Below are positions 2,196 through 28,689 of a stretch of 64,000 nt of DNA, in pieces. Position 1 is the first letter of the stretch, and every line of letters begins with the position of its first letter. The position numbers were made by a program, and so were the translations under genes. The stretch is from assembly GCA_001563305.1 (NCBI GenBank), contig CP013703.1, forward strand, positions 1,039,773 through 1,103,772. Direction: 5' to 3'. This DNA is from a methanogenic archaeon mixed culture ISO4-G1. Lineage in GTDB: Archaea; Thermoplasmatota; Thermoplasmata; Methanomassiliicoccales; Methanomethylophilaceae. The notes beneath the pieces were generated by a model. It was not told the DNA's origin and made no database searches. It saw only the letters and a program-made list of their open reading frames with translations.

Positions 2196-4367
2196 TCACA
2201 CGAACAGGACTGCGGTGACCAGACAGATGGTGGACAGCAGTTTGACCAGAACGTGGATCGAAGGTCCGGCGGTGTCCTTGAAGGGATCTCCGATGGTATC
2301 TCCGACGACTGCCGCTGCGTGTGCAGGGGACTTCTTTCCGCCGTGGTTACCCTCTTCGATATACTTCTTGGCATTGTCCCAGGCTCCTCCTCCGTTGTTG
2401 AGGAAGTTGGCCATGAGGATACCGACGATCGTACCGATCATGATGAGTGCTCCGACGGACATGTAGGCCTCGACGTAGTCTCCGAGCGCGTACCTCATGA
2501 TGAGTCCGAAGACCACGGGCACGAGAATGGGCAGGAGTGCGGGGACGACCATTGTCTTGAGGGCACCGCGGGTAGCGATGTCGACGCACTTTGCGTAATC
2601 GGGCTGGCTGGTTCCCTCGAGGATTCCCTTGTCCTCACGGAACTGCCTGCGGACCTCCTCGACCATCTCACCGGCTGCCTTGGAGACTGCACGGATTGCG
2701 AGGGATGCGAAGAAGAACACGAGTGCTGCACCAACGAGTCCTCCTACGAAGATGAGGGGGTTACCAATGTTGATGTTAAACACGAGTGCCAGCGGGGTTC
2801 CGGTGACCTCGGAGATAATCTCGAAGAATGCTGCGAACAGCAGGAATGCTGCGAGTGCTGCGGATGCCATTGCGTATCCCTTGGTGAGGGCCTTGGTGGT
2901 GTTTCCGGCCGCATCGAGCTTGTCTGTCCTGTCCCTGACCTCCTCGGGCTGTCCGGACATCTCGGCGATTCCACCGGCGTTGTCGGTGATGGGTCCGAAT
3001 GTGTCCTCAGCGAGGATGAATGCGGAGGATGCGAGCATTGCGATGGTTCCGATCGCGGTTCCGTAGAATCCGAAGATCATGGGGTCCACGAGAGGGGGTG
3101 CTGCAACGTAACCGAGCATGTATGTCGCGATGATGGCGACGACGATGCAGACGACGGGCAGGACGGTGGACTCGAGTCCGACCGAGATACCCTCGATGAC
3201 GTTGGTTGCCGCTCCGGTCTCAGAGGCTGCTGCGATTCCCTTGACGGGCTTGTGGTCTCCGGTGTAGTACTGGGTGATGTAGACGATGCACAGTCCCAGT
3301 GCAATTCCGACGATTCCTGCTGCGAAGAAGTTGACCCAGTAGCTCTCACCGAGCAACATGTATGTGGTGACAGCAAGGAACACGATGTTCAGAGCGATGG
3401 TGACGTAGTATCCGACATTCAGGGACTTTACGACATCTCCATCCTCATCCATCCTGACAATAGCGATTCCGACGAGGGAAGCGATAAGTCCGAATGCCAT
3501 GAGGACGAGGGGGAGGAACACCCAGTTGCTTCCAAGAAGGGGTGCCGCTCCGACGACTGCTGTACCGATGACCATCGCACCGATGATCTCGGCTGCTGTT
3601 GACTCGAAGATGTCTGCTCCACGACCTGCACAGTCTCCGACATTGTCTCCGACGAGGTCGGCGACGACGGCGGGGTTCCTGGGGTCATCCTCGGGGATTC
3701 CGGCCTCGACCTTTCCGACGAGATCGGATCCGACATCTGCTGCTTTGGTGTAGATTCCTCCACCCAGCTGGGCGAAGAGTGCTGCGAAGGATGCACCGAA
3801 GGCGTATCCGACGACTGCGTGAAGTGTAGGTGTCAGAGAGGGGTAAAGCCCGTCTCCGTCACCGATCATAGCGTTGTAGATCAGGACGACCATGAAGAGT
3901 CCGAACAGGGAGAGGGTCGAGACTGCGATTCCGGAGAGTGCTCCTCCCCTGAATGATGTCTTGAATGCCTCGCCAAGGGACCTCTTGGCTGCTGCGGATG
4001 TCCTGATGTTCGAGTTGACCGAGACCTTCATTCCGATGAATCCGGAGAGGATCGAGAACGAAGCTCCGATCACGAATGCGATCGCAACTTTGTAGTTCAG
4101 GTAGAGCGAGAAAGGCTCACCTGCGAACGTACAGAGGGCGATTATGATTGCGAGAATCATGATGACGATTCCGATTGTCTTGATCTGGCGCTTCAGGTAA
4201 GCCATCGCACCAGTCTCGATCGCATCGGACACCTTCTGCATCTCAGGGGTGCCCTTGTCCTTGGACCATACGTCTTTGAAGAAGTAGGCCGCAAAGAGCA
4301 ATGCGACAATGCTTGCAACCGGGATCATGAACAGAAGATTCTCAGTAGCGAAAATATCGACTATCAT
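2196..4367 (-). CDS. hppA: membrane-bound proton/sodium-translocating pyrophosphatase
   Basis: 723 aa and polytopic, with the H+-PPase signatures GDNVGDCAGRGADIFES and DTIGDPFKDTAGPSIHVLVK. Confidence 0.95.
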   Translation of the reverse strand: MIVDIFATENLLFMIPVASIVALLFAAYFFKDVWSKDKGTPEMQKVSDAIETGAMAYLKRQIKTIGIVIMILAIIIALCTFAGEPFSLYLNYKVAIAFVIGASFSILSGFIGMKVSVNSNIRTSAAAKRSLGEAFKTSFRGGALSGIAVSTLSLFGLFMVVLIYNAMIGDGDGLYPSLTPTLHAVVGYAFGASFAALFAQLGGGIYTKAADVGSDLVGKVEAGIPEDDPRNPAVVADLVGDNVGDCAGRGADIFESTAAEIIGAMVIGTAVVGAAPLLGSNWVFLPLVLMAFGLIASLVGIAIVRMDEDGDVVKSLNVGYYVTIALNIVFLAVTTYMLLGESYWVNFFAAGIVGIALGLCIVYITQYYTGDHKPVKGIAAASETGAATNVIEGISVGLESTVLPVVCIVVAIIATYMLGYVAAPPLVDPMIFGFYGTAIGTIAMLASSAFILAEDTFGPITDNAGGIAEMSGQPEEVRDRTDKLDAAGNTTKALTKGYAMASAALAAFLLFAAFFEIISEVTGTPLALVFNINIGNPLIFVGGLVGAALVFFFASLAIRAVSKAAGEMVEEVRRQFREDKGILEGTSQPDYAKCVDIATRGALKTMVVPALLPILVPVVFGLIMRYALGDYVEAYMSVGALIMIGTIVGILMANFLNNGGGAWDNAKKYIEEGNHGGKKSPAHAAAVVGDTIGDPFKDTAGPSIHVLVKLLSTICLVTAVLFV

Positions 4368-4567
4368 TTCATAACCCCTATTCTTTCGGTTGAACCTCAG
4401 TATATCGATTTCCTATATAAGGACACACGTTATTTTTATAGAGGAATAAAGGGAAATCTGCGCGTTGGACATGGATGTGTGGATCCTTTTATTTGTTTCC
4501 GGCGGTAAAGTGAGGACAATACCCTTTTAACCCCCATCGCACCTAGCCCCAGGTCAGAGACGATAAA

Positions 4568-5518
4568 ATGTCCAAGGAAGGAGAACTCAATCTCATCGAA
4601 GTTGAAGACATCAAAGTGAAGAAAGGAATGACAGTGGACGAGCTCATGAGGTACATGAGCGGCGCAGGCGGATTCACGGCACAGAAGCTGGCGGACGCCA
4701 CCGACATCCTCGAGAAGATGGAGAAGGACAAGGACTGCCTCAAGATCCTGTCCTTCCCAGCATGCATCATGGCGACCGGAACCCGCGGTGTGCTCGTCGA
4801 CATGGTGAAGAACAAGCAGGTCGACCTCATCATGACCACCTGCGGATGCCTCGACCACGACATTTCCAGGACTTACGAGAACTACTTCCACGGAGACTTC
4901 CTGATGGACGATGCCGAGCTCAGGACCAAATACGAGATCTCTAGGCTCGGGAACATCCTTGTGCCAGACGACTGCTACGGAGAGGTCCTCGAGGGAGAGA
5001 TCCTGCCCATGTTCGACGAGATCTTCGAGGGCAAGGACTCCATGACCACCCACGAGATCATCTGGGAGGTCGGAAAGAGGATGAACGACGAGAGCTCGCT
5101 CATGTACTGGGCCTGGAAGAACCAGATCCCGATCGTCGTCCCCGGAATCACAGACGGATCCTTCGGATGCCAGCTCTGGATGTACTACCAGACACACAGG
5201 AAGTTCAGGATCGACCTCTTCGCCGACGAGCAGCTGCTCTCCGAGATGACCAACCACGCCGTCAGGACAGGGGCCCTCATGATCGGAGGAGGAATCTCCA
5301 AGCACCACGTCATCTGGTGGAACCAGTTCCGCGGAGGACTGGACTACGCCGTCTACCTGACCACCGCAATGGAGTACGACGGATCCCTTTCCGGAGCCAG
5401 GCTCAGAGAGGCCGTCTCCTGGGGTAAGGTTGCGCCCGAGGCCAAGAAGATGACCGTCGAGGGAGATGCCACCATCACCCTGCCGATGATCTACGCCTCA
5501 CTCGTGGACAGGCTGTGA
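4568..5518 (+). CDS. dys: deoxyhypusine synthase
   Basis: 316 aa with the DHS fold (PACIMATGTRGVL..TTCGCLDHDI...GGGISKHHV). Confidence 0.85.
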   Translation: MSKEGELNLIEVEDIKVKKGMTVDELMRYMSGAGGFTAQKLADATDILEKMEKDKDCLKILSFPACIMATGTRGVLVDMVKNKQVDLIMTTCGCLDHDISRTYENYFHGDFLMDDAELRTKYEISRLGNILVPDDCYGEVLEGEILPMFDEIFEGKDSMTTHEIIWEVGKRMNDESSLMYWAWKNQIPIVVPGITDGSFGCQLWMYYQTHRKFRIDLFADEQLLSEMTNHAVRTGALMIGGGISKHHVIWWNQFRGGLDYAVYLTTAMEYDGSLSGARLREAVSWGKVAPEAKKMTVEGDATITLPMIYASLVDRL

Positions 5519-6501
5519 GAATGAAGGAGAAGATACTGGTCCTACCGGGCGACGGAATCGGTCCGTCGATAACGTCCGCCTTCGAGAAGGTCATCACCGC
5601 CGCCACCGACGCAGTGGAGATAGTTCGCGGCGATATCGGCAGGAGCGCCTATGAGACCACGGGCCAGTACCTTCCCCATGACACCTTGGACCTTTTGGAC
5701 GAGTGCAAGACCGTCATATGCGGCCCCACCGTTCCGCCGGAGAACGGGAGCGATCCCGTCAACTCTCTCAGGGTCCAGCTCGATCTCTTCGCCAGGGTCA
5801 GATGGTTCAAGACCCTGGCCCCGGACCTCGGGAAGGAAGGGGTCGATGTGCTGCTCTGGAGCAGCAACAACGATATCTCGTCCGAATTCAGCGAGGTCCC
5901 GGACCTCGAAGGCATCACCATCGGCAAGTACATCAAGAACAACGCATACAGCAGGATGATGAAGCTGGCACACAAGGACATAGAGATTCTGGGACTCAAG
6001 AGGATCACCTGTCTCACGAGAGAGGACTTCTTCCCCCTGAGCAGCAAGAGATTCAGCGACACCTTCGACTCCATGTTCCCCGCCGAGATATATGATATAT
6101 CTCACCAGAACGTCAAATTCTGGCTGTCCAGGATCCTCAAGGAGCCGACCGTCGAGGACTGCATAGTCTGCGTGGACCTCTACAACCAGCCGGTGGCCGG
6201 TGTGCTGGCCGGGATGACCGGATACATACACATGGGCCCCTGCCTGGTCATGGGCGAGGAGTACAAGATGTACGAGCCCAGCCAATGGCCGTCGTACGAG
6301 GGGCTCGAAGAGAAGTTCGCCAACCCGACGTCGGCGATCCTGTCCGCGAGCATGATCCTCCATAATATCGGACTCGCCGATCAGGCCAGGAGGATCACCG
6401 ATGCGGTCGTCGAGGCGTACCGCCTGAAGGAGAGGACCCCCGAGGTCGGGGGCAAGCTCACCGCCGCGGAATTCACGGACAAGGTCATCTCCCACCTCTG
6501 A
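5515..6501 (+). CDS. isocitrate/isopropylmalate/homoisocitrate dehydrogenase family protein (divergent)
   Basis: N-terminal LVLPGDGIGP motif of beta-decarboxylating dehydrogenases, 328 aa. Substrate not assignable from sequence. Confidence 0.65.
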   Translation: MRMKEKILVLPGDGIGPSITSAFEKVITAATDAVEIVRGDIGRSAYETTGQYLPHDTLDLLDECKTVICGPTVPPENGSDPVNSLRVQLDLFARVRWFKTLAPDLGKEGVDVLLWSSNNDISSEFSEVPDLEGITIGKYIKNNAYSRMMKLAHKDIEILGLKRITCLTREDFFPLSSKRFSDTFDSMFPAEIYDISHQNVKFWLSRILKEPTVEDCIVCVDLYNQPVAGVLAGMTGYIHMGPCLVMGEEYKMYEPSQWPSYEGLEEKFANPTSAILSASMILHNIGLADQARRITDAVVEAYRLKERTPEVGGKLTAAEFTDKVISHL

Positions 6502-6505
6502 TAGG

Positions 6506-6526
6506 GATGCATTCATCCAACATCCA
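6506..6526. promoter_or_regulatory. palindrome GGATG-CATT-CATCC (plus an extra CATCC) about 57 bp upstream of the mtaA-like gene
   Basis: Seen directly. The same GGATG/CATCC half-sites recur upstream of mtaC at 55361-55620. Confidence 0.3.
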
Positions 6527-6575
6527 GTGCTTTTTGACTCATAGTCTTTTATCGGCGTAAGCCCTGTCTTGTCCT

Positions 6576-7625
6576 ATGATCGATGCGGGACACAGGGATT
6601 GTGTTCAGGCAGCCCTGAACCATGAGAGGACCGAAAGGACGCCAGTCAACAACTTCGTTCTGGCCACCGCCGCTCGCAGTGCGGGAGTGACCGTGGACTG
6701 TGCCAGGTGGGATCCGAAGATCTCAGCGAAGGTCTCCGTGGACCACGCGATCAAGACGAAATCGGATTTCGTCAAACCCGTGTTGGACTCGCAGGTCCCA
6801 TACAAGGATCTTGGGATGAAGGTCCGCTTCCCCGAGGATGACTACGGTCAGATTCTGGAACCCATCGCCACGGATTCGGAGGGACTTGATAAACTCGCAT
6901 TGTTCGACCCTTCGAGGGCGTCCGAGTGCCCCTCGTTCACCAAGGTCTTCGTGGAGGGGTTGCAGGAGACCGCCAGGATACTTCCCGAGGACCTCCACAT
7001 CTGCGGACTCTCATGGGGTCCGTTCACCACCGGCGGTTACATCATGGGTGCGGAGAACATGATCATGAACGTGTTCATGGACCCGGACCTCGTGACCAAG
7101 CTCATGAAGAAGGTAACTGGATTCGTTGCCGATATGCAGGCGGTCATGCTCGATGCCGGTGCAACCGTGATGTGGATGGCCGATCCGACATCCTCGGAGG
7201 ACCTCATAGCACCAGACATGTTCTTGGACTACTCCGCCCCGTACATCAAACAGGTCGTGGACAAGGTCAACAAGATGGACAACACCACACCGAAGTTCGT
7301 CCACATCTGCGGCAACACGCTGGACCTCATCCCCCATATGCCGATGACGGGCGCTGACTGCCTGAGCTTCGACCATGCCGTGGACCCCACGAAGGCCAAG
7401 CAGGCCGCCGGTAAGAAGGTGTCCATCATGGGCAACATCGATCCCGTCGAGGTCATGATGATGGGAACACCGGAGTCCATCACGAAGGAATGCTACAGGG
7501 TCATCGATGCCGCGGGACAGGACGGAGGGTTCATACTGGCGCCCGGATGCGAGACGCCGATACAGACCTCGGACGAGAACGTGCTGGCCATGGGCAACGC
7601 CGCCAGGACTTATTGGTCCAGATGA
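6576..7625 (+). CDS. methylcobamide:CoM methyltransferase, MtaA/MtbA family (URO-D fold)
   Basis: 349 aa with uroporphyrinogen-decarboxylase-like sequence and N-terminal 'AALNHERTERTPV' similar to the MtaA 'ALNGE.VDRVPV'. Which methyl substrate it serves is not resolvable. Confidence 0.75.
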   Translation: MIDAGHRDCVQAALNHERTERTPVNNFVLATAARSAGVTVDCARWDPKISAKVSVDHAIKTKSDFVKPVLDSQVPYKDLGMKVRFPEDDYGQILEPIATDSEGLDKLALFDPSRASECPSFTKVFVEGLQETARILPEDLHICGLSWGPFTTGGYIMGAENMIMNVFMDPDLVTKLMKKVTGFVADMQAVMLDAGATVMWMADPTSSEDLIAPDMFLDYSAPYIKQVVDKVNKMDNTTPKFVHICGNTLDLIPHMPMTGADCLSFDHAVDPTKAKQAAGKKVSIMGNIDPVEVMMMGTPESITKECYRVIDAAGQDGGFILAPGCETPIQTSDENVLAMGNAARTYWSR

Positions 7626-7675
7626 TGCGTTGGCAAACCTTTATTAACATCATCTATATCTCTGGACTACTGAGT

Positions 7676-7762
7676 GCAAGGGTAGTCAAGCATGGCCAAC
7701 GACGCTAGCTTGAGGGGCTAGTCCTTAGTGGTCCGCGAGTTCAAATCTCGTCCCTTGCACCA
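7676..7762 (+). tRNA. tRNA-Leu (anticodon GAG), class II with long variable arm, encoded CCA
   Basis: GCAAGGG...CCCTTGC acceptor, anticodon stem CTAGC/GCTAG with loop TTGAGGG, 14-nt variable arm, T-loop TTCAAAT, 3' ACCA. Confidence 0.8.
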
Positions 7763-7785
7763 CTTCTTCACAATTCTTCCCGGAT

Positions 7786-8139
7786 TCACTGTTCACGTCT
7801 CAGCTCGCCGAGACGGTCGATGAACGATCTGGCCGCCGAACGCATGTCCGGTGAAACGGCACCTCTGAACCTTCTCCTGCGAGAGGTGACCGCCCACGTG
7901 GAATCGTCCGGATCCCCCAGGAAGGAGAGCTTCGCCCTTATCTCCCCGATGTCCCAGATGAACACCGCGTCGTAAGGCTCGTCGGCGGAATAAGTGAACT
8001 CCATGCCGTCGAACGGAGAGAGGTCGGACCCCAGTTCTTCCCTGAACGCCTCGCAGAACTTCCCTGCCTGTTCGGCAAGACCGTAGGTGTCCATATCGAT
8101 GATGTAGGACCTCATGACATCGGCCGGGTTCACGGTCAT
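7786..8139 (-). CDS. hypothetical protein (117 aa)
   Basis: Intact ORF with coding-like composition. No recognisable motifs. Confidence 0.45.
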   Translation of the reverse strand: MTVNPADVMRSYIIDMDTYGLAEQAGKFCEAFREELGSDLSPFDGMEFTYSADEPYDAVFIWDIGEIRAKLSFLGDPDDSTWAVTSRRRRFRGAVSPDMRSAARSFIDRLGELRREQ

Positions 8140-8234
8140 GGTTGCTTAATGGTCGCTGCGGATAATAACGGAATCGATGGCTCTCGGACCGATCGCATAT
8201 CAACAATCTAATAGACGCATAGTTTTCGTGTGTC

Positions 8235-9347
8235 ATGGATTCTTCGGACAGGGAGAGCAGGATCATCCGCACCAGCGCGATAGGTATCGTCACCAACATC
8301 AGTCTCGTCGCCGTGAAGATGTTCATCGGAGTCCTGTCCAACTCCATCGCCGTCATGATGGACGCCGTCAACAATCTGTCCGATGCGCTGTCGTCGGTGG
8401 TCACCATCATCGGTACAAAACTGTCAATGCGCACCCCCGACAAGAAGCACCCGTTCGGATACGGGAGGATAGAGTACATGACCGCGCTGATCGTCGCGGT
8501 CATCGTCCTGTATGCAGGAATGACCGCGCTGATCGAATCCGCCGAACACATTCTCGAACCTGCGGAAACCGATTATACCACCATATCCCTGGTCATCATC
8601 GCAATCGCGGTCCTGGTAAAGGTAATCCTGGGGCGGTACACCATGTCCGTCGGGAAGGCGACCGACTCCGGAGCACTGACCGCATCCGGTGCGGACGCCC
8701 TCTTCGATGCCGTCCTGTCCACATCGGTCCTAGCATCCGCCCTCATTCTCGTGACCACCGGGATCTCCCTGGAGGCCTACGTCGGTGTCCTGATCTCCCT
8801 GTTCATCATCAAATCCGGTCTGGAGATGATCAAGGAGACCCTTGATGACGTCCTCGGCCAGAGATCCGATCCGGATGTGGCCAGGAGGATCAAGGAGATT
8901 GTGAGATCGGAACCCGGTGTCATAGGCGCTTACGATCTGGTGATCAACAACTACGGTCCCGGAAGAGATTACGCTTCCATCCATGCTGAGGTGGAATCCT
9001 CCATGAGAGCGGAGGACATCGACGTCCTATCCAGGAAGCTCCAGGTCAAGGTGCTCGAGGAGACCGGGATAACCCTGACCGCCATCGGGATATATTCGGT
9101 GGACGTGTCCGACCCGGAGGTCCTTGCCATAAGGGACAGGATCCTGGAGATAACCTCGTCGCACGACTGGATCCTGGAGATGCACGGTTTCCATGTGGAT
9201 ACGGTCGAGAAGACGATACGCTTCGACATCGTCCTCAGTTTCGACATCGATCGCAAGGATGCCCTGAGAACCATTTGCTCCGAGATCGGCGAGGCCTATC
9301 CTGAATACAGGCTGAGTGTGGTCCCTGACGTTGATGTGTCTGACTGA
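8235..9347 (+). CDS. cation diffusion facilitator (CDF) family metal efflux transporter
   Basis: Six TM helices plus a cytoplasmic C-domain, with HPFGYGRIE and the D-A-xx-D/N metal-site motifs typical of CzcD/FieF. Confidence 0.85.
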   Translation: MDSSDRESRIIRTSAIGIVTNISLVAVKMFIGVLSNSIAVMMDAVNNLSDALSSVVTIIGTKLSMRTPDKKHPFGYGRIEYMTALIVAVIVLYAGMTALIESAEHILEPAETDYTTISLVIIAIAVLVKVILGRYTMSVGKATDSGALTASGADALFDAVLSTSVLASALILVTTGISLEAYVGVLISLFIIKSGLEMIKETLDDVLGQRSDPDVARRIKEIVRSEPGVIGAYDLVINNYGPGRDYASIHAEVESSMRAEDIDVLSRKLQVKVLEETGITLTAIGIYSVDVSDPEVLAIRDRILEITSSHDWILEMHGFHVDTVEKTIRFDIVLSFDIDRKDALRTICSEIGEAYPEYRLSVVPDVDVSD

Positions 9348-9373
9348 TCGGATAACCTAAGAGAACGGATGAG

Positions 9374-9446
9374 TGGGCCCCCCCGGATTTGAACCGGAGT
9401 CAGTGGCTCCCGAAGCCACAAGGATACCAAGCTACCCCAAGGGCCC
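9374..9446 (-). tRNA. tRNA-Pro (anticodon CGG)
   Basis: Minus strand. GGGCCCT/GGGGCCC acceptor, anticodon stem GTGGC/GCCAC with loop TTCGGGA, T-loop TTCAAAT. Confidence 0.75.
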
Positions 9447-9479
9447 ACATGGACGGACAGATTATCTTCCGATTTATAA

Positions 9480-9713
9480 TTAACGAGAACCCAGTCCGAT
9501 GGTGTCCTCGGCTATCTTGATGCACGCCAGCAGATCGTCGGCGGTGTTCCTCAGCGAACCGGCGTCCTCCGCCTCCATCCTGAACGTCAGGAAGTTCCCC
9601 TCCACCTTCGACTCGACGTATCCCCCGTTGTCGGGATCGAGGGACCTCATGACCGTCTCCGCGGTCTTCGCATCGGGATACTCGAATCTCAGCTCAAGCG
9701 AAAGCATCAGCAC
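9480..9713 (-). CDS. KEOPS subunit Pcc1-like protein
   Basis: 77 aa. The spacing L.L.F...E.A..V..SL.P......VE..L.F..EA.D...LR...D..L..I resembles Pcc1. Confidence 0.45.
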   Translation of the reverse strand: MLMLSLELRFEYPDAKTAETVMRSLDPDNGGYVESKVEGNFLTFRMEAEDAGSLRNTADDLLACIKIAEDTIGLGSR

Positions 9714-9771
9714 TCGGTAACCGATAGGTGGTAAAATAATGGTTGCCCGGGGCGGACCCCGGGAATGAGTT

Positions 9772-12651
9772 TCAGCAGGCGAAGTACCCGTGCGTCCTGA
9801 GCATGCGCTTCTTGACCATGTGGCTCCCGAAGAAGTACACGCAGGCGATGAAGGGCATCCAGATCATGGCGGTTCCGGCTATGGCGAGGAAGTCGGGCTG
9901 GAATACCTCCATCGGGAACTCCGATATGCCTGCCCAGAGCTCTCCGCTGAACGGCAGCAGGGTCCCGATGATCAATGCTACGATGGCGGACACCACGAGG
10001 GCCTTGCAAGACCAGGACTGGTAGAACGGCATCTTGTTGGTACGCACTATGTGGATCGCCCAGACCTGCATCCAGTACTGCTCTATGACCCAGATGGCCT
10101 GGAACAATGCCTCCACGTTCGTTCCGCCGAGCTCCGCGCGACCGAGTATGGCCGCACCGACGGTGTCGAATCCCGCACCGACATAGTTGCCGTATGCGTC
10201 CACCGCTAACTCCCCGGCATCGTCCAGGATCTGGAAGACCGTACCGCTTCCCGTGTCGATCAGCGGCATCGATCCGAATATCACGAAGATCATGAAGCAC
10301 CATGTCATGACATCGGTCAGCGGGCACATCGGACCGTAATGGAACATGACGTTCCTCAGGTTTATCGCATCCCATTTGCGCGGTTCCCTGACGAACTCGT
10401 CCTCCACCTTGTCCCACGGGATGATCAGGCACGCGAAGTCGTTGATGAGGTTGAAGATCAGGATCATCATCGCGCCCATGGGCGAGAAGTTGAACAGGAG
10501 CGTCGCCAGGATCAGCGAGAACATATAACCGAAGTTGATGGATCCGATCATCTTCACGTACTTGATCGAGTTGACGTAGACCTTCCTTCCCTCGATGGCA
10601 CCGTCCTTGAGGATGCCCAGATCCTTCTCCAGAAGGATCATGCTGGCAGTCTCCTTGGCTATGTCGGTACCGGTGTCGACGGATATGCTGACGTCGGCGT
10701 TCTTCATCGCCAGGACGTCGTTGATGCCGTCACCCATCAGCCCGACGCAGTGGCCGTTGTTGCGCAGCGCCATGACGATACGGGACTTGTTGTCCGGTGT
10801 GAGCCTGACGAACACGTTGTTGGCCTCCACGACCTTGGCGAGGACCTCGTCGGACATCTCGTCGATCTGTGGGCCGGTGATGATGAATGACTTCCCTTCC
10901 TCCGGCTCGAACTCCTCGATGGATCCGATGTCCCTGTCCAGGACATCGCATCTGATCCCGATCTGGTCGCACACGTAGTGGGAGACGTATTCGTTGTCCC
11001 CGGTGAGGACCTTGACCTTAATCCCGTAATCGTTCAGGTCCTGTATGGCCTTCTTTGCGGTCCTCTTGACAGGGTCGGTGAACACGACGAATCCCGCGAA
11101 TGTCTGTCCCGATTCGTCGGACGGGGTGTATTCGGATTTCGCATCGCTGAAATGCCTGTGGGTGACTCCCAGGACACGCATCCCCTTGTTGCTGTACCAC
11201 TCGACCAGGCCCAGGATCTTGCTGACCGTTGCATCGTCCAGCTCCTGAGCGTCCCCGTTCTCGTCGAGGTACTTGTCAGAAATTGCCAGAATCTCCGGGA
11301 CCGCCCCCTTGGTGACCATGATGCAGGGGTCGCTTCCCTTCCTGACCACGACGGTGGCCCTTCTCCTGATGAAATCGAACGGCACATCGCCGATCCACTG
11401 GTAGTCGTCCAGCTCCTCCATCAGGTACTCGTTCTCGGCATGCTCCTGGATGGCCCAGTCGATCTGGTTCGTTGCCGATGTGAGCTTCGTGCTGTTCAGG
11501 CACACCAGTCTCTCGACCAGGGCGTTAGGCGTCCCATAGATGTCGTTGCATGACTCTACGGAGATCCTGTTCTCGGTGAGCGTTCCTGTCTTGTCCGAAC
11601 AGAGGACGTCCATCGCACCGAAGTTCTGAATCGAGTTCACGTCCTTCACGATGACCTTGCGCTTGGACAGGTCTATTGAACCCTTGGCCAGGTTCGTGGA
11701 GACTATGGTCGCCAGCATCTCGGGCATGAGACCGATGGCGAGGACTATGGTGAATGTGACCGCGAACATGAAGCTGGTCATGGTGAGCCCCTCGGAGCTG
11801 AGCATGGCCTTGGCGATCATGATTATGAAGACCGGCGGGATGGTGTAGAGCATCAGCTTGAGCAGGACCTTGACGATGGCCTTGCTCCCCTTGTCGTAGG
11901 TGGTCTTGGTCTTCTTGGTGGATAATTTCTCGGCCATCGAACCGATGACCGTATCGTCACCGACGGCGATGACTATCGCCTCTGCGGAACCTTCCATGAC
12001 GCTCGTCCCCATGAATGCCATGTTGTTGCATTCGAGGATGCTCCCAGTGACACTGACGGGCTCCGTGAACTTTGTGGCCGCATCGGACTCCCCGGTCAGT
12101 GCGGACTGGTCCACCTTCAGGTGGTTGGATTTGATGATCCTGACGTCCGCCGGGATGACATCCCCGGTATCGAGGATTAGGATGTCCCCGACGACCAGAT
12201 CGCAGGAGTCCACCTCCGTCTCCACGTTCTCACGGCGGACCGTGATTATAGTGGTGACCATGTTGATCAGTTTGGACGCCGCCGCACTGCTGCGGGTCTC
12301 CTGGATGAACGTCATGGTACCGCTGACGAGGATCAGGGTGGTCAGGATGACGAAATAGACGAGATCCGGTTCCTCTCCGACCTCGTAACCGAGCCCCGGG
12401 ATCAGCCATATGATGTCGATGATCGTCAGGGCTATGATGAAAACGTTCACGAACGCATGGTAGAGCCTCCTGAGGACCGCATGCGTGTTGTGGTTCGAAA
12501 CGATATTCTCGCCGTACTTGATGCGTGAGGTCGTCAGTTCCTCGTTGTAATGACCCTCTATCCTGCTGTCGTACTTCTCGATGATCTCGGCGACATCCGA
12601 TGACGCCGCTTCCTTCATCCTTTGTTCCGGAGAAAATGTATCCGTTGCCAC
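9772..12651 (-). CDS. mgtA: Mg2+-importing P-type ATPase (MgtA-like, PIII)
   Basis: 959 aa with CSDKTGTLT, TGD, GDGINDV and the MgtA-specific KVIVKD.NSIQNFGAMDVLC and EGRKVYVNSIKYVKM..SINFGYMFS blocks. Confidence 0.8.
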   Translation of the reverse strand: MATDTFSPEQRMKEAASSDVAEIIEKYDSRIEGHYNEELTTSRIKYGENIVSNHNTHAVLRRLYHAFVNVFIIALTIIDIIWLIPGLGYEVGEEPDLVYFVILTTLILVSGTMTFIQETRSSAAASKLINMVTTIITVRRENVETEVDSCDLVVGDILILDTGDVIPADVRIIKSNHLKVDQSALTGESDAATKFTEPVSVTGSILECNNMAFMGTSVMEGSAEAIVIAVGDDTVIGSMAEKLSTKKTKTTYDKGSKAIVKVLLKLMLYTIPPVFIIMIAKAMLSSEGLTMTSFMFAVTFTIVLAIGLMPEMLATIVSTNLAKGSIDLSKRKVIVKDVNSIQNFGAMDVLCSDKTGTLTENRISVESCNDIYGTPNALVERLVCLNSTKLTSATNQIDWAIQEHAENEYLMEELDDYQWIGDVPFDFIRRRATVVVRKGSDPCIMVTKGAVPEILAISDKYLDENGDAQELDDATVSKILGLVEWYSNKGMRVLGVTHRHFSDAKSEYTPSDESGQTFAGFVVFTDPVKRTAKKAIQDLNDYGIKVKVLTGDNEYVSHYVCDQIGIRCDVLDRDIGSIEEFEPEEGKSFIITGPQIDEMSDEVLAKVVEANNVFVRLTPDNKSRIVMALRNNGHCVGLMGDGINDVLAMKNADVSISVDTGTDIAKETASMILLEKDLGILKDGAIEGRKVYVNSIKYVKMIGSINFGYMFSLILATLLFNFSPMGAMMILIFNLINDFACLIIPWDKVEDEFVREPRKWDAINLRNVMFHYGPMCPLTDVMTWCFMIFVIFGSMPLIDTGSGTVFQILDDAGELAVDAYGNYVGAGFDTVGAAILGRAELGGTNVEALFQAIWVIEQYWMQVWAIHIVRTNKMPFYQSWSCKALVVSAIVALIIGTLLPFSGELWAGISEFPMEVFQPDFLAIAGTAMIWMPFIACVYFFGSHMVKKRMLRTHGYFAC

Positions 12652-22468: not shown

Positions 22469-23305
22469 ATGGATAAGAAAATCGGAATTATAGCCGTTGT
22501 CGCTGTAGTCATAGTCGTTGCAGCTGGAGCGATTGTTCTGACCAACGGTAAAGATCCTTCAGCCACAATCCTCGTTGAGGATCAGAATGGAGTTTTCTTC
22601 TGGACAGAGGGTTCAGGAAAGACCATTGCGGATTGTCTCGAGAAGACATCCGCAGGTGTAAAAGTAACAATGACTGACAGCTCATTCGGCAAGTACATCC
22701 AGGCAGTTAACGGACTTGCTGGAACCGAAGACTACACAGGATACTGGTCTGTTTATCAGTACAGCAACGGAGAATGGGTGTCATCAGAACTTGGAGTCTC
22801 AAGCCTTGAAACAAAAGATAACCAGTACATTGGACTGTTCTACGTAATCACGGACCCTGAGACATATGCAATTGTTCAGGGCGGTCCTGAGAAAGTAACC
22901 GTCCCCTCCATCACCGATGCAAAGGTCTGGGACGGATCAACCGACGGAGTCATCTTTGCACTTCAGGGAGAATCTGGATTGTACTGCTACATCAACAGCA
23001 CAGTCGGAGAGAACATGTCCGAGAGATTCGACGACGCATGCACCAAATACATGGTATCCCACAGTATGAGCTCCAGGGGAGGAATCTCCACCCTGTTCGG
23101 ACTCGGAAGCGTCCCTGTTGGAACTCAGGATGATGCCACCATCTACAAGTACTGGATCCAATACGGACTCGAGGACGGAAAGTGGACTTGGATGACCACC
23201 GGACTCAAGAACACCGATGCCAACGCATACAAACAGATGGCAATCTTCTACGGTGTCGGTTCCATGTATGGTGGAGAAGACCCCACTGTACCGGCTTACG
23301 CTTGA
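22469..23305 (+). CDS. N-terminally membrane-anchored extracytoplasmic protein with DUF4430/transcobalamin-beta-like module
   Basis: N-terminal TM (IIAVVAVVIVVAAGAIVL). Motif block DCLEK...VNG....YTGYWSVYQYSNGEW is shared with the N-termini of the next two proteins. Confidence 0.45.
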   Translation: MDKKIGIIAVVAVVIVVAAGAIVLTNGKDPSATILVEDQNGVFFWTEGSGKTIADCLEKTSAGVKVTMTDSSFGKYIQAVNGLAGTEDYTGYWSVYQYSNGEWVSSELGVSSLETKDNQYIGLFYVITDPETYAIVQGGPEKVTVPSITDAKVWDGSTDGVIFALQGESGLYCYINSTVGENMSERFDDACTKYMVSHSMSSRGGISTLFGLGSVPVGTQDDATIYKYWIQYGLEDGKWTWMTTGLKNTDANAYKQMAIFYGVGSMYGGEDPTVPAYA

Positions 23306-23349
23306 ACAACGTTTAAACAAACCTCTTCCAAACCCTTTTATTTGATAAA

Positions 23350-24714
23350 ATGAAAACATCCATGAAAGTTGTTTTGAGCCTTGTTCTGGTCTTCATTGGA
23401 ATAACTTTAGCGGTAGTTTTCACACCACAAGTGGAGTCGGCGTACGCACAGGGAATCATCCTAGATTTCGGGGATTATGACATTTACTATCTCGGTATTG
23501 ATGATGAGGATGAGAACGCAATCGATTCCGTCAACAAACTCTGCGACTACTATTCCATGTCGATAACATGGAACGGGAACCAGATCTCAAAGATTTCCAA
23601 GGAATATATTGATTATCCAGAATCAGGAAGCACAGCAACCTGGAAACTGTATATCAACGAAAAGGACACTATCGGTTGGAAACTGTTCGATGGATCCGCT
23701 GAAAAGCTCCACATCGGTGATTACTCGGCAGTTTGCTGGGGGCTCTGCGAAAAGGATGAGGAACCTACACCTGGCGTAGATGCCATGGGGATCTGCTTCT
23801 ACGGTTACGGACAAAGCTACCGCATTGTATCACTAGCACCGTCCTGTACCGAGACGATAGCCGCTTCAGGCGCTGGTAATATCATAGTCGGCGCCGATGA
23901 ATTCAGCAATTATCCGCTCTACATCAAACAAGCAATGGAGTCGGGTGCTATCGTTTCAGTTGGAGGGTACACCAATCCCAGTTACGAAGTGATAGCACAA
24001 TTGAATCCGGATATTGTTATAGGCGTTGCCGACCAGTCTACACATCGCTCAGTAATAGAAAAGATGAGGGCCCACGGGGTCCACTGTCTAGCCACCTACA
24101 CGGGTGACAGCATCAAGACAATCATGGACAATACGTACATGATCGGTGCGGCAATGAACTATCAGCTCAAATCCACACAGACCATGCAACAGATCGAGGA
24201 TGCACTGGAAATACTGGATGCAGAACTATCTTCCGGATTATCGCACAGATCTGATGTTATGATCTCCCTTTCAACCTCCAAATCACCCTGGGTGGCAGGA
24301 GGCAATACTTACGCTTCTGATGTAATAAGTCGCGCGTTGTGTAATAATATATACTCATCAGAAACAGGATGGGCGATGGTCAACAGTGAAACTGTTCCCT
24401 CGCGCGATCCTGAATATATCATCGTAGTTTCGTCTGATTACGGTAATACAGATGAAGACTACAATAACATGATCTCCTCCCTCTCTGCAGAATGGAGGAA
24501 TACAACTGCCTTCAAACAAGGTAACATCTTTTTGCTCACCGGAGGGGCCACAGATTTAGCATCTCGTCCTTCCACACGCATAGCACAATTCACAGAACTC
24601 ATGTGCAGGATGATCCAACCAGAAATCTTCAACGATATCAATCTACCTCATCACATCGGTGACGATTACAAGGATTACCTGACGATAACGAAAGAATTGG
24701 GGTTCGACACATGA
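23350..24714 (+). CDS. periplasmic-binding-protein (BtuF/FhuD class III) with extra N-terminal DUF4430-like domain
   Basis: Signal/TM at N-terminus. Residues about 150-454 are BtuF-like (IVSLAPSCTE..., NPDIVIG). The N-terminal 120 aa carry the W..Y.NG..W module. Confidence 0.65.
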   Translation: MKTSMKVVLSLVLVFIGITLAVVFTPQVESAYAQGIILDFGDYDIYYLGIDDEDENAIDSVNKLCDYYSMSITWNGNQISKISKEYIDYPESGSTATWKLYINEKDTIGWKLFDGSAEKLHIGDYSAVCWGLCEKDEEPTPGVDAMGICFYGYGQSYRIVSLAPSCTETIAASGAGNIIVGADEFSNYPLYIKQAMESGAIVSVGGYTNPSYEVIAQLNPDIVIGVADQSTHRSVIEKMRAHGVHCLATYTGDSIKTIMDNTYMIGAAMNYQLKSTQTMQQIEDALEILDAELSSGLSHRSDVMISLSTSKSPWVAGGNTYASDVISRALCNNIYSSETGWAMVNSETVPSRDPEYIIVVSSDYGNTDEDYNNMISSLSAEWRNTTAFKQGNIFLLTGGATDLASRPSTRIAQFTELMCRMIQPEIFNDINLPHHIGDDYKDYLTITKELGFDT

Positions 24715-27700
24715 TGAAACAGAACACGGTTCTAAAGACCTCTGCTTTGGTAGCGATCCTCGTGGTAACATCTCTCTTCCTGTTCGTGCCAGAGTTGGAT
24801 GCAGATGGTGCATACATCCTCATCGACAAAGGAGACGGAGACACCTATTGGTATTCCGGAACCACAGAGACAGTCGCTGATTCATTCAGTACGGCCGCCC
24901 AATCCCTGGGATTGGACCTGAACATCGACGGTTCTAAAATAACTGTTGACGGAGTATCTTCGATTACCATCGGAAGCCAAACCGTATCCTGGAGAATCTA
25001 TCAGTGGGGGGATGGATGGGTCGACGTCACATCTTCTATCGATATGAGCTCCGCGCCCACATCATCCATGGCCATCGGGTTGTATCCCGCGGGCACAACC
25101 CCTACCGAGACGCCCGCGTTCATGGACTCATGGACCCAGGTCCGCGGAAACGCCTCAATGACAGGTATACAGAATGCCAATCTGGATTCCGAGAAGACAA
25201 TGGAGAACGTACTAGCATGGTCAAGAGGGGATAACGACTACATCACCGGTTGCGTACTCGTGGCCCGTGAGCATGTCTATGGATTCTTCAACGGCGGATA
25301 CATGAACACCCAAAGTACCCCTGCATTGTTCTGCTTCAACAGATTTACGGGAGAGACAGAGTGGATCGTTAACGTTCCTGCAGGAGTCGGATATGAGACC
25401 ATGTCAGGCTGTATAGTCGGCGATTACTACTATCTCCCGACCAGTTACGGATACATCTACAGGATTCCACTGGATAACCCAGGTGAGGCCTCATACTATG
25501 TCCAGATGTCCTCAAGGCTCATGGTAGATGAGGACAAGATGCCTTCAGTGACTTCCGTGAAATATAAGGCAACAGGGGAAGGCACCTACCATGATGCCCC
25601 TCTGGAGATTATGGACACTAACGCTTTCGATATACCAGTCAGCATCGGATCTACCTATGACATCCAGATATCGGATAGTAGCAGAACCTACAACGGGACA
25701 TTAACCGTCAACAACGAAGATGCACTCGGGGTAAAAATAACCGGAAATACCGAAGAAGACAAGAGTCTCATCGGAGACTACTCCTCTCGCATAAGCTATT
25801 CGTATTCCGAAGTTACAAAGACATTCATCTCGAAGACCAGATCCCCGAACATGGAAGGGCGCACGATATACAACACTGGGCCCGCTTCCATCACATACTA
25901 CGGGGGCGCACTGTTCTTCGGCACCAGTTCAGGATACACCTATGCCCTGGATTTGGATCTAAATACCCTGTGGAAGACCGACGTTAGGAGTCAAAACTAC
26001 TACGATTCTGTCATGATTTGTGATGACAGAGTATTCGTGGGAACTTACAGCGGAAAACTGTACGCATTAGATGTCTCCACTGGAGAGATCAAAGCATCGG
26101 TAACAGCAGCCTCCTACCCATCCACCGTCTACGGTGACGGAGGAAGAGTCTGCACGCCTGTGAAAGTGGATGACATTCTATTCTTCTCATCATCCGACGG
26201 ATTAGGGATGAACAGTACCCAGGGAGGATTCTCTGCATACACATTCAAAAACGATTCGTTCACGAAGATCATGTCCAACACCGACTATGGTCAAGCCTCA
26301 ACATACATGACAGTAGTGATAAATACTGAATTCAAAGGAGTCTACTTTACCACAGATTACGGTCTGATGAGACTGTCCACCGATATGCAACTCGAGATCA
26401 TCAATGAGAAGATGACGGGAGTACGTGCATCCCCAGTGCTTGTCAACGGCGATACTCTCCTAATGCAGGATTACGCCTATGCCAAGAACAACGTGGGCGG
26501 ACAGATGTACAGAGTGACCCTCGATGGTACAATCGAAGGACAATACCAGAGGCCCAGTGAGGTGGATCAGTGGACTATGAGCCCAATCACGGCCATAGGC
26601 GAGTACCTGTACGGCGGAACAGATAATGGGTTCTTCATACTGGAAGGGAAAATGCCCGAAGTCAAAGATGATTCGGGCACCGGAGGGATCAATCCTCTAT
26701 GGATTGCTTTGGCGATAATCGCAGTTATAATCAACATACTGCTCATCATAAGCTTCTTCCTAGCCAAGAAGAGCAACATGTCGACGGGAAAATACATCGA
26801 ATCAAAATTCTCGAGGATCAGCGGATTCCACAACGACTCCATGTCAAAGACGCAGGCAAACAAACGTCGTCTATTGTTCGTCCTGATACTTGGAATCATA
26901 ATCATGCTTATCATGTTCATATGCTGTCTGGCATATGGGCCTTCGATGAGCCTCTCGCCCATAGATGCTTTCTCCAATCTGATATCCGCTATACAAAAAG
27001 GTGGAGAAGGATTGACTCTGTCCGAACTTGTTGTGTACGAATCGCGTCTACCTCGTGCGATAGCCGCGATTGCCGTAGGACTGGGATTAGCAGTAGCCGG
27101 TTGCATATATCAAGCTGTCATCCGTAACCCGATGGTGGACCCGTACATAATGGGTGTTTCATCCGGAGCAGGAACCTTCGCGGTTGCTGCCATAGCGAGC
27201 GGATTCACATTCTTTGGACTTCTGGATAACTCTGAATTCATGATTCCTGTCCTCGCGATTGTCGGTGGACTGCTCGCGTTTGGACTCACCATGCTTCTTG
27301 CCTCCAAGGCAGGGAACACGGCCACAGGGTATGTGCTTGCAGGAGTTGTTATCGGATTGGCGTTCACATCAATCCAGACGGTCATTTTGACAACATCTGA
27401 TTCGGAAAAGCTCCACAGTGCGATATCTTGGCTGTACGGAAGCTTCACCAGTGTCGATTGGGGAACCGTTTGGCTGATATTCTTCCCTGCACTGTTCCTA
27501 TCACTGACTTTCTTGATCTGGGCCAAGGAGCTGAATCTTGTTCTTCTGGGCGACGATAACGCACAACAAATGGGTCTGAATGTCAAAAAATTCGATGCCC
27601 TGATGCTCATACTTGCATCGGTCCTGACATCTGTCTGCGTCGCATTTGTGGGAATCATCGGATTTGTAGGACTGGTCGTTCCTCACATCTGCCGTATGAT

Positions 27701-27893
27701 CTTGGGAGGAGATCACAGGCTGGTCCTACCTGCATCAATGGTCCTAGGTGCAGCATTGATGCTGCTTGCGGATCTGTTGGCAAGAATGCTAATGATCCCG
27801 TTGGAATTACCAGTCGGTGCCATCACCACTGTCGTCGGAGTACCACTGTTCGCTTATCTACTCATTAAGAGAGGGAGGATGTACAATGGATGA
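24711..27893 (+). CDS. fusion protein: signal/TM anchor - DUF4430-like domain - PQQ-like beta-propeller - TM - FecCD/BtuC-type ABC permease
   Basis: 1060 aa. Residues about 380-620 hold repeated YALD..TG..W/K PQQ-type blades. Residues about 700-1060 are a canonical FecCD permease (RLPRAIAAIAVG..., GVSSGAG...). Confidence 0.75.
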   Translation: MMKQNTVLKTSALVAILVVTSLFLFVPELDADGAYILIDKGDGDTYWYSGTTETVADSFSTAAQSLGLDLNIDGSKITVDGVSSITIGSQTVSWRIYQWGDGWVDVTSSIDMSSAPTSSMAIGLYPAGTTPTETPAFMDSWTQVRGNASMTGIQNANLDSEKTMENVLAWSRGDNDYITGCVLVAREHVYGFFNGGYMNTQSTPALFCFNRFTGETEWIVNVPAGVGYETMSGCIVGDYYYLPTSYGYIYRIPLDNPGEASYYVQMSSRLMVDEDKMPSVTSVKYKATGEGTYHDAPLEIMDTNAFDIPVSIGSTYDIQISDSSRTYNGTLTVNNEDALGVKITGNTEEDKSLIGDYSSRISYSYSEVTKTFISKTRSPNMEGRTIYNTGPASITYYGGALFFGTSSGYTYALDLDLNTLWKTDVRSQNYYDSVMICDDRVFVGTYSGKLYALDVSTGEIKASVTAASYPSTVYGDGGRVCTPVKVDDILFFSSSDGLGMNSTQGGFSAYTFKNDSFTKIMSNTDYGQASTYMTVVINTEFKGVYFTTDYGLMRLSTDMQLEIINEKMTGVRASPVLVNGDTLLMQDYAYAKNNVGGQMYRVTLDGTIEGQYQRPSEVDQWTMSPITAIGEYLYGGTDNGFFILEGKMPEVKDDSGTGGINPLWIALAIIAVIINILLIISFFLAKKSNMSTGKYIESKFSRISGFHNDSMSKTQANKRRLLFVLILGIIIMLIMFICCLAYGPSMSLSPIDAFSNLISAIQKGGEGLTLSELVVYESRLPRAIAAIAVGLGLAVAGCIYQAVIRNPMVDPYIMGVSSGAGTFAVAAIASGFTFFGLLDNSEFMIPVLAIVGGLLAFGLTMLLASKAGNTATGYVLAGVVIGLAFTSIQTVILTTSDSEKLHSAISWLYGSFTSVDWGTVWLIFFPALFLSLTFLIWAKELNLVLLGDDNAQQMGLNVKKFDALMLILASVLTSVCVAFVGIIGFVGLVVPHICRMILGGDHRLVLPASMVLGAALMLLADLLARMLMIPLELPVGAITTVVGVPLFAYLLIKRGRMYNG

Positions 27894-28689
27894 AACACCG
27901 CTTCTTGAGGTCAGAAACCTCAACAAAATCTACGACAATGGATACCATGCGGTACGCGACGTATCATACAAGCTACCGTCCGGCAAACTCGTCGGATTAA
28001 TCGGACCGAACGGGTGCGGTAAATCCACAATGATGAGGTGCATCAACAAAATGCACTCTATCACATCCGGTGATGTTCTGATCGATGGTATATCGGTCCT
28101 TGACCAGAATGTCACAGAGATTGCAAAACAAGTCGCCAATGTGCCAGCAGAACTGAAAAACAGCTTTGGACTCACCGTTTATGAAACGGTCATGTTAGGC
28201 CGCTACCCGTATCTGAGGAACCTTTGGTGGGAGACCAACGAGGATGAATCGGATGTCATCGATGCCATGAAGAAATTTGGTGTCGACCACCTTCAAGATA
28301 GGCAGATTAATATGCTCTCATCAGGAGAGATGCAGAGAGTACTGATTGCCAAGGCATATGTTCAGAACCCCAGATTAATGCTGGTCGATGAACCAACATC
28401 ACACCTTGACATGAAGTACAAACTGAACGTCATGGAATATTTGCGTGCAATGGTACGTCAGGATATGACGGTTCTTGTCGCGGAACACGATATTTCCCTT
28501 ATGGCAAGATATTGTGATCTCTGCATCATCATGAAGAAAGGAGAGTTAGTGACGATAGGAGATCCGAAAGAGGTCATCACAGAAGAGTTAGTGCGCGATG
28601 TCTACGATGTCGTAGCCAATGTGGGCGTGGACAAAGATGGAGAAATATACGTCCTACCAAAAAGATTCGTAGGAAATTACGAACTATGA
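27886..28689 (+). CDS. ABC transporter ATP-binding protein (FecE/BtuD-like)
   Basis: Walker A GPNGCGKST, signature LSSGEMQRV, Walker B LMLVDEPTSHLD. Start MDETPLLEV overlaps the permease stop. Confidence 0.85.
   Translation: MDETPLLEVRNLNKIYDNGYHAVRDVSYKLPSGKLVGLIGPNGCGKSTMMRCINKMHSITSGDVLIDGISVLDQNVTEIAKQVANVPAELKNSFGLTVYETVMLGRYPYLRNLWWETNEDESDVIDAMKKFGVDHLQDRQINMLSSGEMQRVLIAKAYVQNPRLMLVDEPTSHLDMKYKLNVMEYLRAMVRQDMTVLVAEHDISLMARYCDLCIIMKKGELVTIGDPKEVITEELVRDVYDVVANVGVDKDGEIYVLPKRFVGNYEL

Follow-up and report, generated by a model that had tools for sequence, protein, structure and literature searches.

The closest described relatives of the transporter reported here are BtuCD-F and FecCDE, importers of the type II ATP-binding cassette (ABC) class, whose permease subunits BtuC, FecC and FecD are about 330 amino acids (aa) long and have no extracytoplasmic domain. 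BtuC-type permeases act as homodimers, and in the BtuCD structure the permease N-terminus lies in the cytoplasm. Extracytoplasmic domains fused to an importer are known from type I systems such as OpuA and GlnPQ, which carry fused substrate-binding domains. We analyzed a stretch of 64,000 nucleotides (the window) from the genome of the methanogenic archaeon ISO4-G1 (Methanomassiliicoccales; Methanomethylophilaceae; contig CP013703.1, positions 1,039,773–1,103,772), in which one gene of a four-gene operon encodes a FecCD/BtuC-type permease preceded, in the same polypeptide chain, by a small transcobalamin-like domain of the SLBB superfamily and a β-propeller. All coordinates below, except those given for homologous loci, refer to the window.

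Like BtuCD-F and FecCDE, the ISO4-G1 system combines a full-length FecCD core with a Peripla_BP_2 binding protein, an ABC ATPase and overlapping genes. It differs from them in the roughly 635 aa of SLBB domain and propeller and the one extra transmembrane (TM) helix that precede the permease core, and in the additional SLBB domain of its binding protein. With OpuA and GlnPQ it shares a covalently attached extracytoplasmic domain, present in two copies per dimer. In those type I importers, however, the fused part is the binding protein, whereas here a type II permease carries an SLBB–propeller module without a binding-protein fold, and the binding protein is encoded by a separate gene. The statement of a preliminary description of this DNA that importer permeases lack large extracytoplasmic domains thus holds in general but not for type I importers with fused binding domains. 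The full-text literature that we searched (FecCD with propeller, DUF4430, and corrinoid or B12 transport in Methanomethylophilaceae and Methanomethylophilus) describes no BtuC-type permease with a built-in SLBB–propeller ectodomain; its components are individually known.

The fusion protein is encoded by a single open reading frame (ORF) of 1060 codons at 24711–27893 on the plus strand, which starts with ATG and contains no internal stop, in agreement with the preliminary description. The complete ISO4-G1 genome in GenBank (1,593,503 bp) contains the same protein as AMK14057.1 (1059 aa), which is identical to the ORF read from its second ATG. Two starts are candidates: 24711, giving the longest ORF, and 24714, used in GenBank. 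The deposited name, "iron ABC transporter permease protein", covers only the last third of the chain. The module order proposed earlier, including a DUF4430-like domain, proved correct, and the small domain is supported by its fold match to the transcobalamin β-domain. The modules are:

24729–24785, plus strand: N-terminal hydrophobic helix (aa 7–25; Kyte–Doolittle peak 2.24)
24798–25124, plus strand: transcobalamin β-domain-like domain of the SLBB/DUF4430 fold (aa 30–138; about 110 aa)
25131–25496, plus strand: conserved linker SWTQVRGN..., strand assigned to ring closure and propeller blades 1–2 (aa 141–262; from DSSP of the AlphaFold2 ectodomain model)
25497–25865, plus strand: β-rich insert between blades 2 and 3 (aa 263–385; strands at model residues 255–345; alignment gap)
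25866–26675, plus strand: propeller blades 3–8 (aa 386–655; BamB/PQQ_2 type, eight blades overall)
26703–26759, plus strand: extra transmembrane helix TM0 (aa 665–683; hydropathy peak 3.07; in all fused homologues)
26760–26870, plus strand: basic linker, predicted to be cytoplasmic (aa 684–720; motif SGF(H/R)ND(A/S)MSKTxANKRRL)
26871–27890, plus strand: FecCD/BtuC-type permease core of a type II ABC importer (aa 721–1060; Pfam FecCD)

The permease assignment is firm: Pfam FecCD (PF01032) matches aa 732–1053 over model positions 2–311 of 311 (E 7e-84), a full-length match of 281.9 bits against a gathering cut-off of 26.5. The N-terminal helix could serve as a Sec signal peptide or stay in place as an uncleaved anchor; in the homologue alignment it is followed by small residues (e.g. 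SSEA/DD, YSNA/DE). Residues 687–722, between TM0 and the permease core, include eight K/R against two D/E. Given this charge and the cytoplasmic N-terminus of BtuC, the linker is therefore predicted to be cytoplasmic, and the hydropathy scan and the basic linker together yield a self-consistent topology: the ectodomain, some 635 aa long, is predicted to lie outside, TM0 to cross back to the cytoplasmic side, and the BtuC-type core to begin there. The linker motif recurs in all aligned fused homologues, with S712, K713, N717, K718, R720 and L721 invariant and S704, G705, F706 and N708 nearly so.

The AlphaFold2 model of the ectodomain (predicted local distance difference test score 86.6; predicted template modelling score 0.91) contains a BamB/PQQ_2-type propeller. 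Its strand list, obtained with DSSP, is read as eight four-stranded blades, with the N-terminal strand completing the last one. At the sequence level, Pfam PQQ_2 matches aa 394–505 by a narrow margin (28.6 bits; gathering score 27.6), and the repeats quoted in the preliminary description are found at aa 409–424 (YTYALDLDLNTLWKTD) and aa 448–463 (GKLYALDVSTGEIKAS). The motif GVGYET(Q/M)(T/S)G, in the segment formed by aa 141–262, is near-invariant among the homologues. The insert between blades 2 and 3 has no match to a Pfam family and no usable match in NCBIfam, and it is missing from a subgroup of homologues about 950 aa long, as seen both from the gap in P0013–P0016 and from the presence or absence of a match to an insert hidden Markov model (HMM) in each homologue. 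"PQQ-like", as the propeller had been called, is to be read as a fold label; pqqE is reported to be absent from Methanomassiliicoccales (PMC10804542).

In fold searches, the nearest folds of the propeller were YxaL, Rv3035 and BamB scaffolds. Rv3035 is an eight-bladed BamB-like propeller that binds FecB, a protein of the Peripla_BP_2 class, with a dissociation constant of 27.5 nM; it docks through the side of one blade, so that the ligand site of FecB stays open (PMC13041763). At 12% identity to the ISO4-G1 propeller, Rv3035 (PDB 9p3f) is a structural analogue, and specific homology is not implied. Rv3035 is, moreover, soluble or periplasmic and partners the arabinofuranosyltransferase AftB and no permease, whereas the propeller described here is borne by the permease itself. 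A further propeller for comparison, BtuG2, has seven blades; it accommodates corrinoids in the central cavity and lies on BtuB as a lid (PMC10404256). Kinship with BtuG was ruled out by blade number (eight versus seven) and a weak fold score. What the ISO4-G1 module has in common with BtuG and BtuH, surface lipoproteins of Bacteroides, is the concept of surface accessory proteins that capture corrinoids directly on the transporter (PMC10404256, PMC8941943).

The small domain preceding the propeller has the transcobalamin β-domain fold (SLBB/DUF4430). DUF4430 corresponds to the C-terminal domain of transcobalamins (PMC4350170), and the isolated transcobalamin β-domain binds both cobalamin and cobinamide (PMC5599065). 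Burroughs et al. (2007), who defined the SLBB superfamily, described secreted prokaryotic transcobalamin-like SLBB proteins, some of them fused to immunoglobulin domains or a β-propeller and often accompanied by a second SLBB paralogue in the operon, and predicted B12 scavenging for such surface proteins (PMC1796856). Unlike the ISO4-G1 protein, none of these was reported to be fused to a permease. The domain also differs from its relatives in three other respects: the α/α-toroid that partners it in transcobalamin, intrinsic factor and haptocorrin is absent here; known prokaryotic SLBB (DUF4430) proteins are tied to energy-coupling factor (ECF) transporters (CbiO/CbiQ), whereas the permease here is of the BtuC type; and its sequence similarity to transcobalamin and SLBB (DUF4430) proteins lies below Pfam thresholds. 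The isolated N-terminal domain has no usable match in Pfam or NCBIfam; its profile gave matches at chance level only against PDB sequences and, against an index of 5.8 billion proteins, returned one fragment, which was uninformative. Conservation across the homologue alignment is high in the SLBB core and in the linker.

The fusion is not peculiar to ISO4-G1. When the ectodomain alone served as query, 16 clusters at 90% identity (938–1075 aa) were retrieved, all of which contain both PQQ-type and FecCD parts, and a profile search of 1.84 billion representatives yielded about 23 fused clusters at 50% identity. Scanning one genome per prokaryotic species with the SWTQVRGN... linker and the GVGYET(Q/M)(T/S)G motif as search patterns gave 48 loci, nearly all labelled as Methanomethylophilaceae, Methanomassiliicoccales or related archaeal metagenome-assembled genomes (MAGs) and originating from rumen, gut, termite and bioreactor sources. 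The fusion is present as one ORF in about 40 Methanomassiliicoccales species, at 28–67% identity. The alignment of the fused proteins runs unbroken through propeller, TM0, cytoplasmic motif and permease, and the junction itself is continuous in 15 full-length homologues and about 40 genomic loci. The fusion is thus genuine and lineage-typical in Methanomassiliicoccales, mainly Methanomethylophilaceae, and the preliminary description was right to regard it as no artefact of annotation or frameshift, the same architecture now being found as one ORF in dozens of species.

Wherever both parts are complete, they form one ORF, with the single exception of L049, where positions 6896–9852 are occupied by ORFs of 467 and 521 aa that overlap by 13 nucleotides inside the propeller; this is probably a frameshift or a sequencing error in a MAG and no true split gene. 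Six bins with bacterial names (L009, L010, L012, L014, L048 and L051) are labelled Bacteroides ovatus, Ruminococcus sp. CAG:579, Dialister hominis, Lachnospiraceae, Bacteroidaceae and Prevotella hominis. Bacterial occurrence was rejected, since five of the six carry the archaeal Dph5 and/or Trm5b genes in the same synteny as the window and are mis-binned; the contig of the sixth, L014, holds the operon only, without Dph5 or Trm5b. The bacterial-named contigs look like binning contamination in public MAGs. Several fused homologues (P0030, P0033, P0041, P0043 and P0049) are much longer, at 1206–1752 aa: the insert occurs in as many as three copies, another SLBB-like domain follows the propeller, or the permease is preceded by several hundred unassigned residues. 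The ectodomain is built from modules and can be extended.

A split form of the system exists as well. It is represented by 10 clusters of proteins of 600–720 aa that consist of the small domain and the propeller and end in a TM anchor of their own with a short basic tail, the anchor being the counterpart of TM0. In both contigs checked, which are archaeal, the gene order is binding protein, SLBB–propeller–TM protein, FecCD permease and ATPase, the same as the domain order of the fusion, and the gap between propeller and permease genes in the split clade is 5–60 bp. The preliminary description stated that homologues that are always split would speak against the fusion; in a rough neighbour-joining tree of ectodomains, the split forms make up only one sister clade, which adjoins a fused member, a branching compatible with both fusion and fission. 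Because the split form keeps the same gene order, it strengthens the functional link between propeller and permease, and irrespective of whether fusion or fission occurred, the propeller module belongs specifically to this transporter. In the split system L052, the permease, which is a protein of its own, lacks the cytoplasmic linker motif and has instead a Q/P-rich extension of about 190 aa.

The fusion gene is the third of four genes on the plus strand:

22469–23305, plus strand: gene 1, N-terminal TM anchor and two SLBB/DUF4430-like domains (278 aa; identical to AMK14055.1, "hypothetical protein")
23350–24714, plus strand: gene 2, membrane-tethered binding protein (454 aa; AMK14056.1 begins at 23362)
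24711–27893, plus strand: gene 3, fusion protein (1060 aa; 1059 aa from ATG 24714 in AMK14057.1)
27883–28689, plus strand: gene 4, ABC ATPase (likely start ATG 27883; Pfam ABC_tran E 5e-32)

The genes on either side of the fusion gene encode the partners expected of a type II importer, namely the Peripla_BP_2 binding protein and the ABC ATPase; they lie on the same strand as the fusion, with overlapping gene ends, and are conserved across loci. The stop codon of gene 2 overlaps the start of gene 3, gene 4 overlaps the end of the permease gene by 11 nucleotides, and the overlapping starts are kept in homologous loci. Gene 2 encodes an SLBB-like N-terminal extension (about aa 28–150) followed by a Peripla_BP_2 domain of the BtuF/FecB class (aa 159–396; E 2e-29). 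The extension aligns with the other SLBB-like domains, and the N-terminal-domain HMM matches it in homologues from L020, L028 and L052. The same HMM matches the product of gene 1 twice, at aa 29–123 (E 2e-6) and aa 176–264 (E 3e-3). The operon as a whole therefore encodes four SLBB-like domains, of which the anchored partner has two and the fusion and the binding protein have one each; homologues of the anchored partner hold the equivalent operon position in most loci. The four-gene set recurs in most loci with enough flanking sequence, usually beside Dph5 and Trm5b and often directly between them. Like the fusion, the binding protein has two candidate starts, 23350 for the longest ORF and Met5 at 23362 in GenBank. 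The ATPase read from ATG 27883 has no exact match in the protein collection searched, and its start is probably annotated elsewhere.

On balance, though with considerable room for doubt, we think it probable that the operon encodes an importer of a corrinoid or related tetrapyrrole, in which SLBB domains would serve for capture and the propeller as a docking scaffold on the permease. The evidence from the transcobalamin-like domains points to a corrinoid- or tetrapyrrole-binding role. The top-scoring models for the permease and the ATPase are BtuC and corrinoid-ATPase models, the best NCBIfam match of the ATPase being "corrinoid ABC transporter ATPase" (E 2.5e-61, below the cut-off). The biology of the host order is consistent with this substrate: Methanomassiliicoccales depend on corrinoid methyltransferases and have unusually many BtuC clades, as found in a survey that aligned the permease core only and does not mention an ectodomain, a propeller or a fusion (PMC10804542). 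The propeller would be a scaffold that possibly docks the binding protein, by analogy with the Rv3035–FecB pair. The preliminary description had also suggested surface-layer docking; for this, our results contain no specific support.

In such a system, the four SLBB domains would bind and concentrate the corrinoid or related tetrapyrrole at the cell surface, and the propeller, positioned at the channel, would act as a scaffold near which the tethered binding protein and the remaining SLBB proteins are kept at the permease. Because BtuC-type permeases are homodimers, two propellers would flank the docking site of the binding protein. The ligand would be handed to the binding protein and then pass through the BtuC-like dimer, driven by ATP. 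A more specific version of the corrinoid hypothesis, which we put forward tentatively and hold to be unlikely as it stands, is that the SLBB domain and a face of the propeller form a two-part corrinoid clamp, the propeller taking the place of the transcobalamin α-toroid. Two such clamps would then sit over the BtuC dimer, and the operon would correspond in archaea to the surface relay of Bacteroides and to the intrinsic factor–transcobalamin chain of mammals, here linked covalently to an ABC importer. The function that a clamp would assign jointly to SLBB domain and propeller would be served in BtuG by the propeller alone.

A number of observations weigh against corrinoid import with a docking propeller. 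With Pfam DUF4430 (PF14478), the small domain of the fusion gives no match even at E 10, and the 278-aa neighbour encoded by gene 1 reaches no more than 18.4 bits (E 0.003), the gathering score being 23.8. The permease scores about E 1e-60 with the NCBIfam models of BtuC, FhuB and FecD alike, in each case below the equivalog cut-off; for BtuC the scores are 216 bits against 334 (NF003001) and 210 against 461 (NF007081), and the equivalog cut-offs for BtuF and BtuD are likewise missed. Among the solved relatives of the binding protein the nearest bind iron or heme, with BtuF lower in the list. No cobalamin riboswitch or other regulatory RNA is present in the window apart from four transfer RNAs, a result that is expected in archaea and hence uninformative. 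Methanomassiliicoccales largely encode the anaerobic B12 pathway (PMC10804542), and Burroughs et al. pointed out that archaea with SLBB domains are frequently B12 producers themselves and so may scavenge "a distinct metabolite" (PMC1796856). As for the docking function, the Rv3035–FecB complex acts in envelope biogenesis, transport not having been demonstrated for it (PMC13041763), and the AlphaFold2 models were built on an ectodomain alignment of 16 sequences. An assignment of the substrate from the binding protein was dropped, its nearest solved relatives binding iron, heme and B12 alike.

The same architecture might instead serve another substrate, for instance heme, an iron chelate in the form of a siderophore or ferric citrate, or some other cofactor or metallo-tetrapyrrole, for example a nickel tetrapyrrole precursor; this compound would then be the ligand of the SLBB domains. 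The public names "iron chelate uptake" and "iron ABC transporter", the near-equal scores of the FhuB, FecD and BtuC models, the iron- and heme-binding relatives of the binding protein and the "distinct metabolite" suggested for archaeal SLBB scavenging (PMC1796856) all speak for such a substrate, as does the proposal that transcobalamin-like proteins of Lactobacillus sakei bind heme, although that proposal comes from docking only (bioRxiv 10.1101/864751). The iron annotations, however, are generic family names, and corrinoids are the sole experimentally established ligands that we found for the transcobalamin-type SLBB fold. To our knowledge, moreover, Methanomassiliicoccales lack cytochromes and have no obvious demand for heme. 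We therefore regard a non-corrinoid substrate of this kind as a serious but rather unlikely alternative to corrinoid import.

The ectodomain might also have no part in substrate handling and be an envelope or adhesion module that anchors or spaces the transporter or mediates cell contact, its SLBB domains being structural β-grasp spacers. Its type of blade repeat occurs in huge archaeal surface proteins, the operons often adjoin adhesin-like genes with Flg_new or LRR_5 domains (cf. PMC10804542), and the variable inserts and extra domains of the homologues give it a modular build. Such a function is nevertheless improbable: the SLBB–propeller unit is strictly tied, fused or adjacent, to one transporter operon throughout the order, the SLBB domain is repeated only on the binding protein and the partner protein of that same operon, and the high conservation of SLBB core and linker is more in keeping with a specific molecular role than with a spacer. 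Finally, the long ORF could in principle stem from an overlooked frameshift or stop or from an assembly error that joined a propeller gene to a permease gene, a view to which the split arrangement of the sister clade and the two overlapping ORFs of L049 might seem to lend weight. Against this stand the continuous frame with conserved TM0 and linker in about 40 independent assemblies, at the sequence divergence given above, the continuous frame in a complete genome, and the build of the split-clade propellers, whose own TM anchor and short basic tail make up a different, coherent design. An artefact is thus effectively refuted and, for practical purposes, excluded.

Methyl-reducing methanogens of gut and rumen run on corrinoid-dependent methyltransferases, and the number of BtuC clades in Methanomassiliicoccales has been considered a possible lever on rumen methane (PMC10804542). 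If the ISO4-G1 system does capture cobamides or dock its binding protein in the way proposed, it would be the first described archaeal surface capture apparatus for a cofactor, would represent a new route by which a type II ABC importer acquires accessory domains, and would be an independent counterpart of Bacteroides BtuG/BtuH and animal transcobalamin. Should SLBB domain and propeller indeed form a clamp, gut methanogens could compete for cobamides. The design is unexpected for specialists in transporters and B12 and offers a way to probe how methanogens of rumen and gut compete for cobamides. The coexistence of fused and split forms also provides a natural test of the pairing of BamB-like propellers with binding proteins, as in Rv3035–FecB. 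The hypothesis is directly testable because ISO4-G1 and Methanomethylophilus alvus, both cultivable, are available as sources.

Some further features of the operon and of the window were observed. In L034, a canonical binding protein–FecCD–ATPase operon, whose binding protein has no SLBB-like domain, adjoins the fused one. In L039, an ORF of 874 aa (4299–6923) upstream of the fused permease comprises two units of SLBB extension plus binding protein in tandem. The gene upstream of the ISO4-G1 operon that belongs to the tetrapyrrole-methylase family was considered as a clue to cobalamin and rejected, being diphthine synthase Dph5. The guanine-plus-cytosine (G+C) content of the operon (22469–28689) is 0.478 compared with 0.567 for the rest of the window, and every one of its genes is low (0.455–0.493); the dip is missing from most homologous loci, with L030 as the exception. 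By composition, the low G+C suggests horizontal acquisition; since the gene order with Dph5 and Trm5b has been retained, the operon may have been exchanged for the version of a lower-G+C relative.

The region 59376–64000 on the minus strand of the window encodes a second, canonical FecCD-type importer. Neither of its two transporter proteins that were examined has an SLBB or propeller part, and two nitrogenase-component-1-like genes directly adjoin it:

63380–63991, minus strand: binding-protein fragment at the window edge
62379–63380, minus strand: permease of 333 aa
61522–62493, minus strand: ATPase
59376–61609, minus strand: two nitrogenase-component-1-like (Oxidored_nitro) genes

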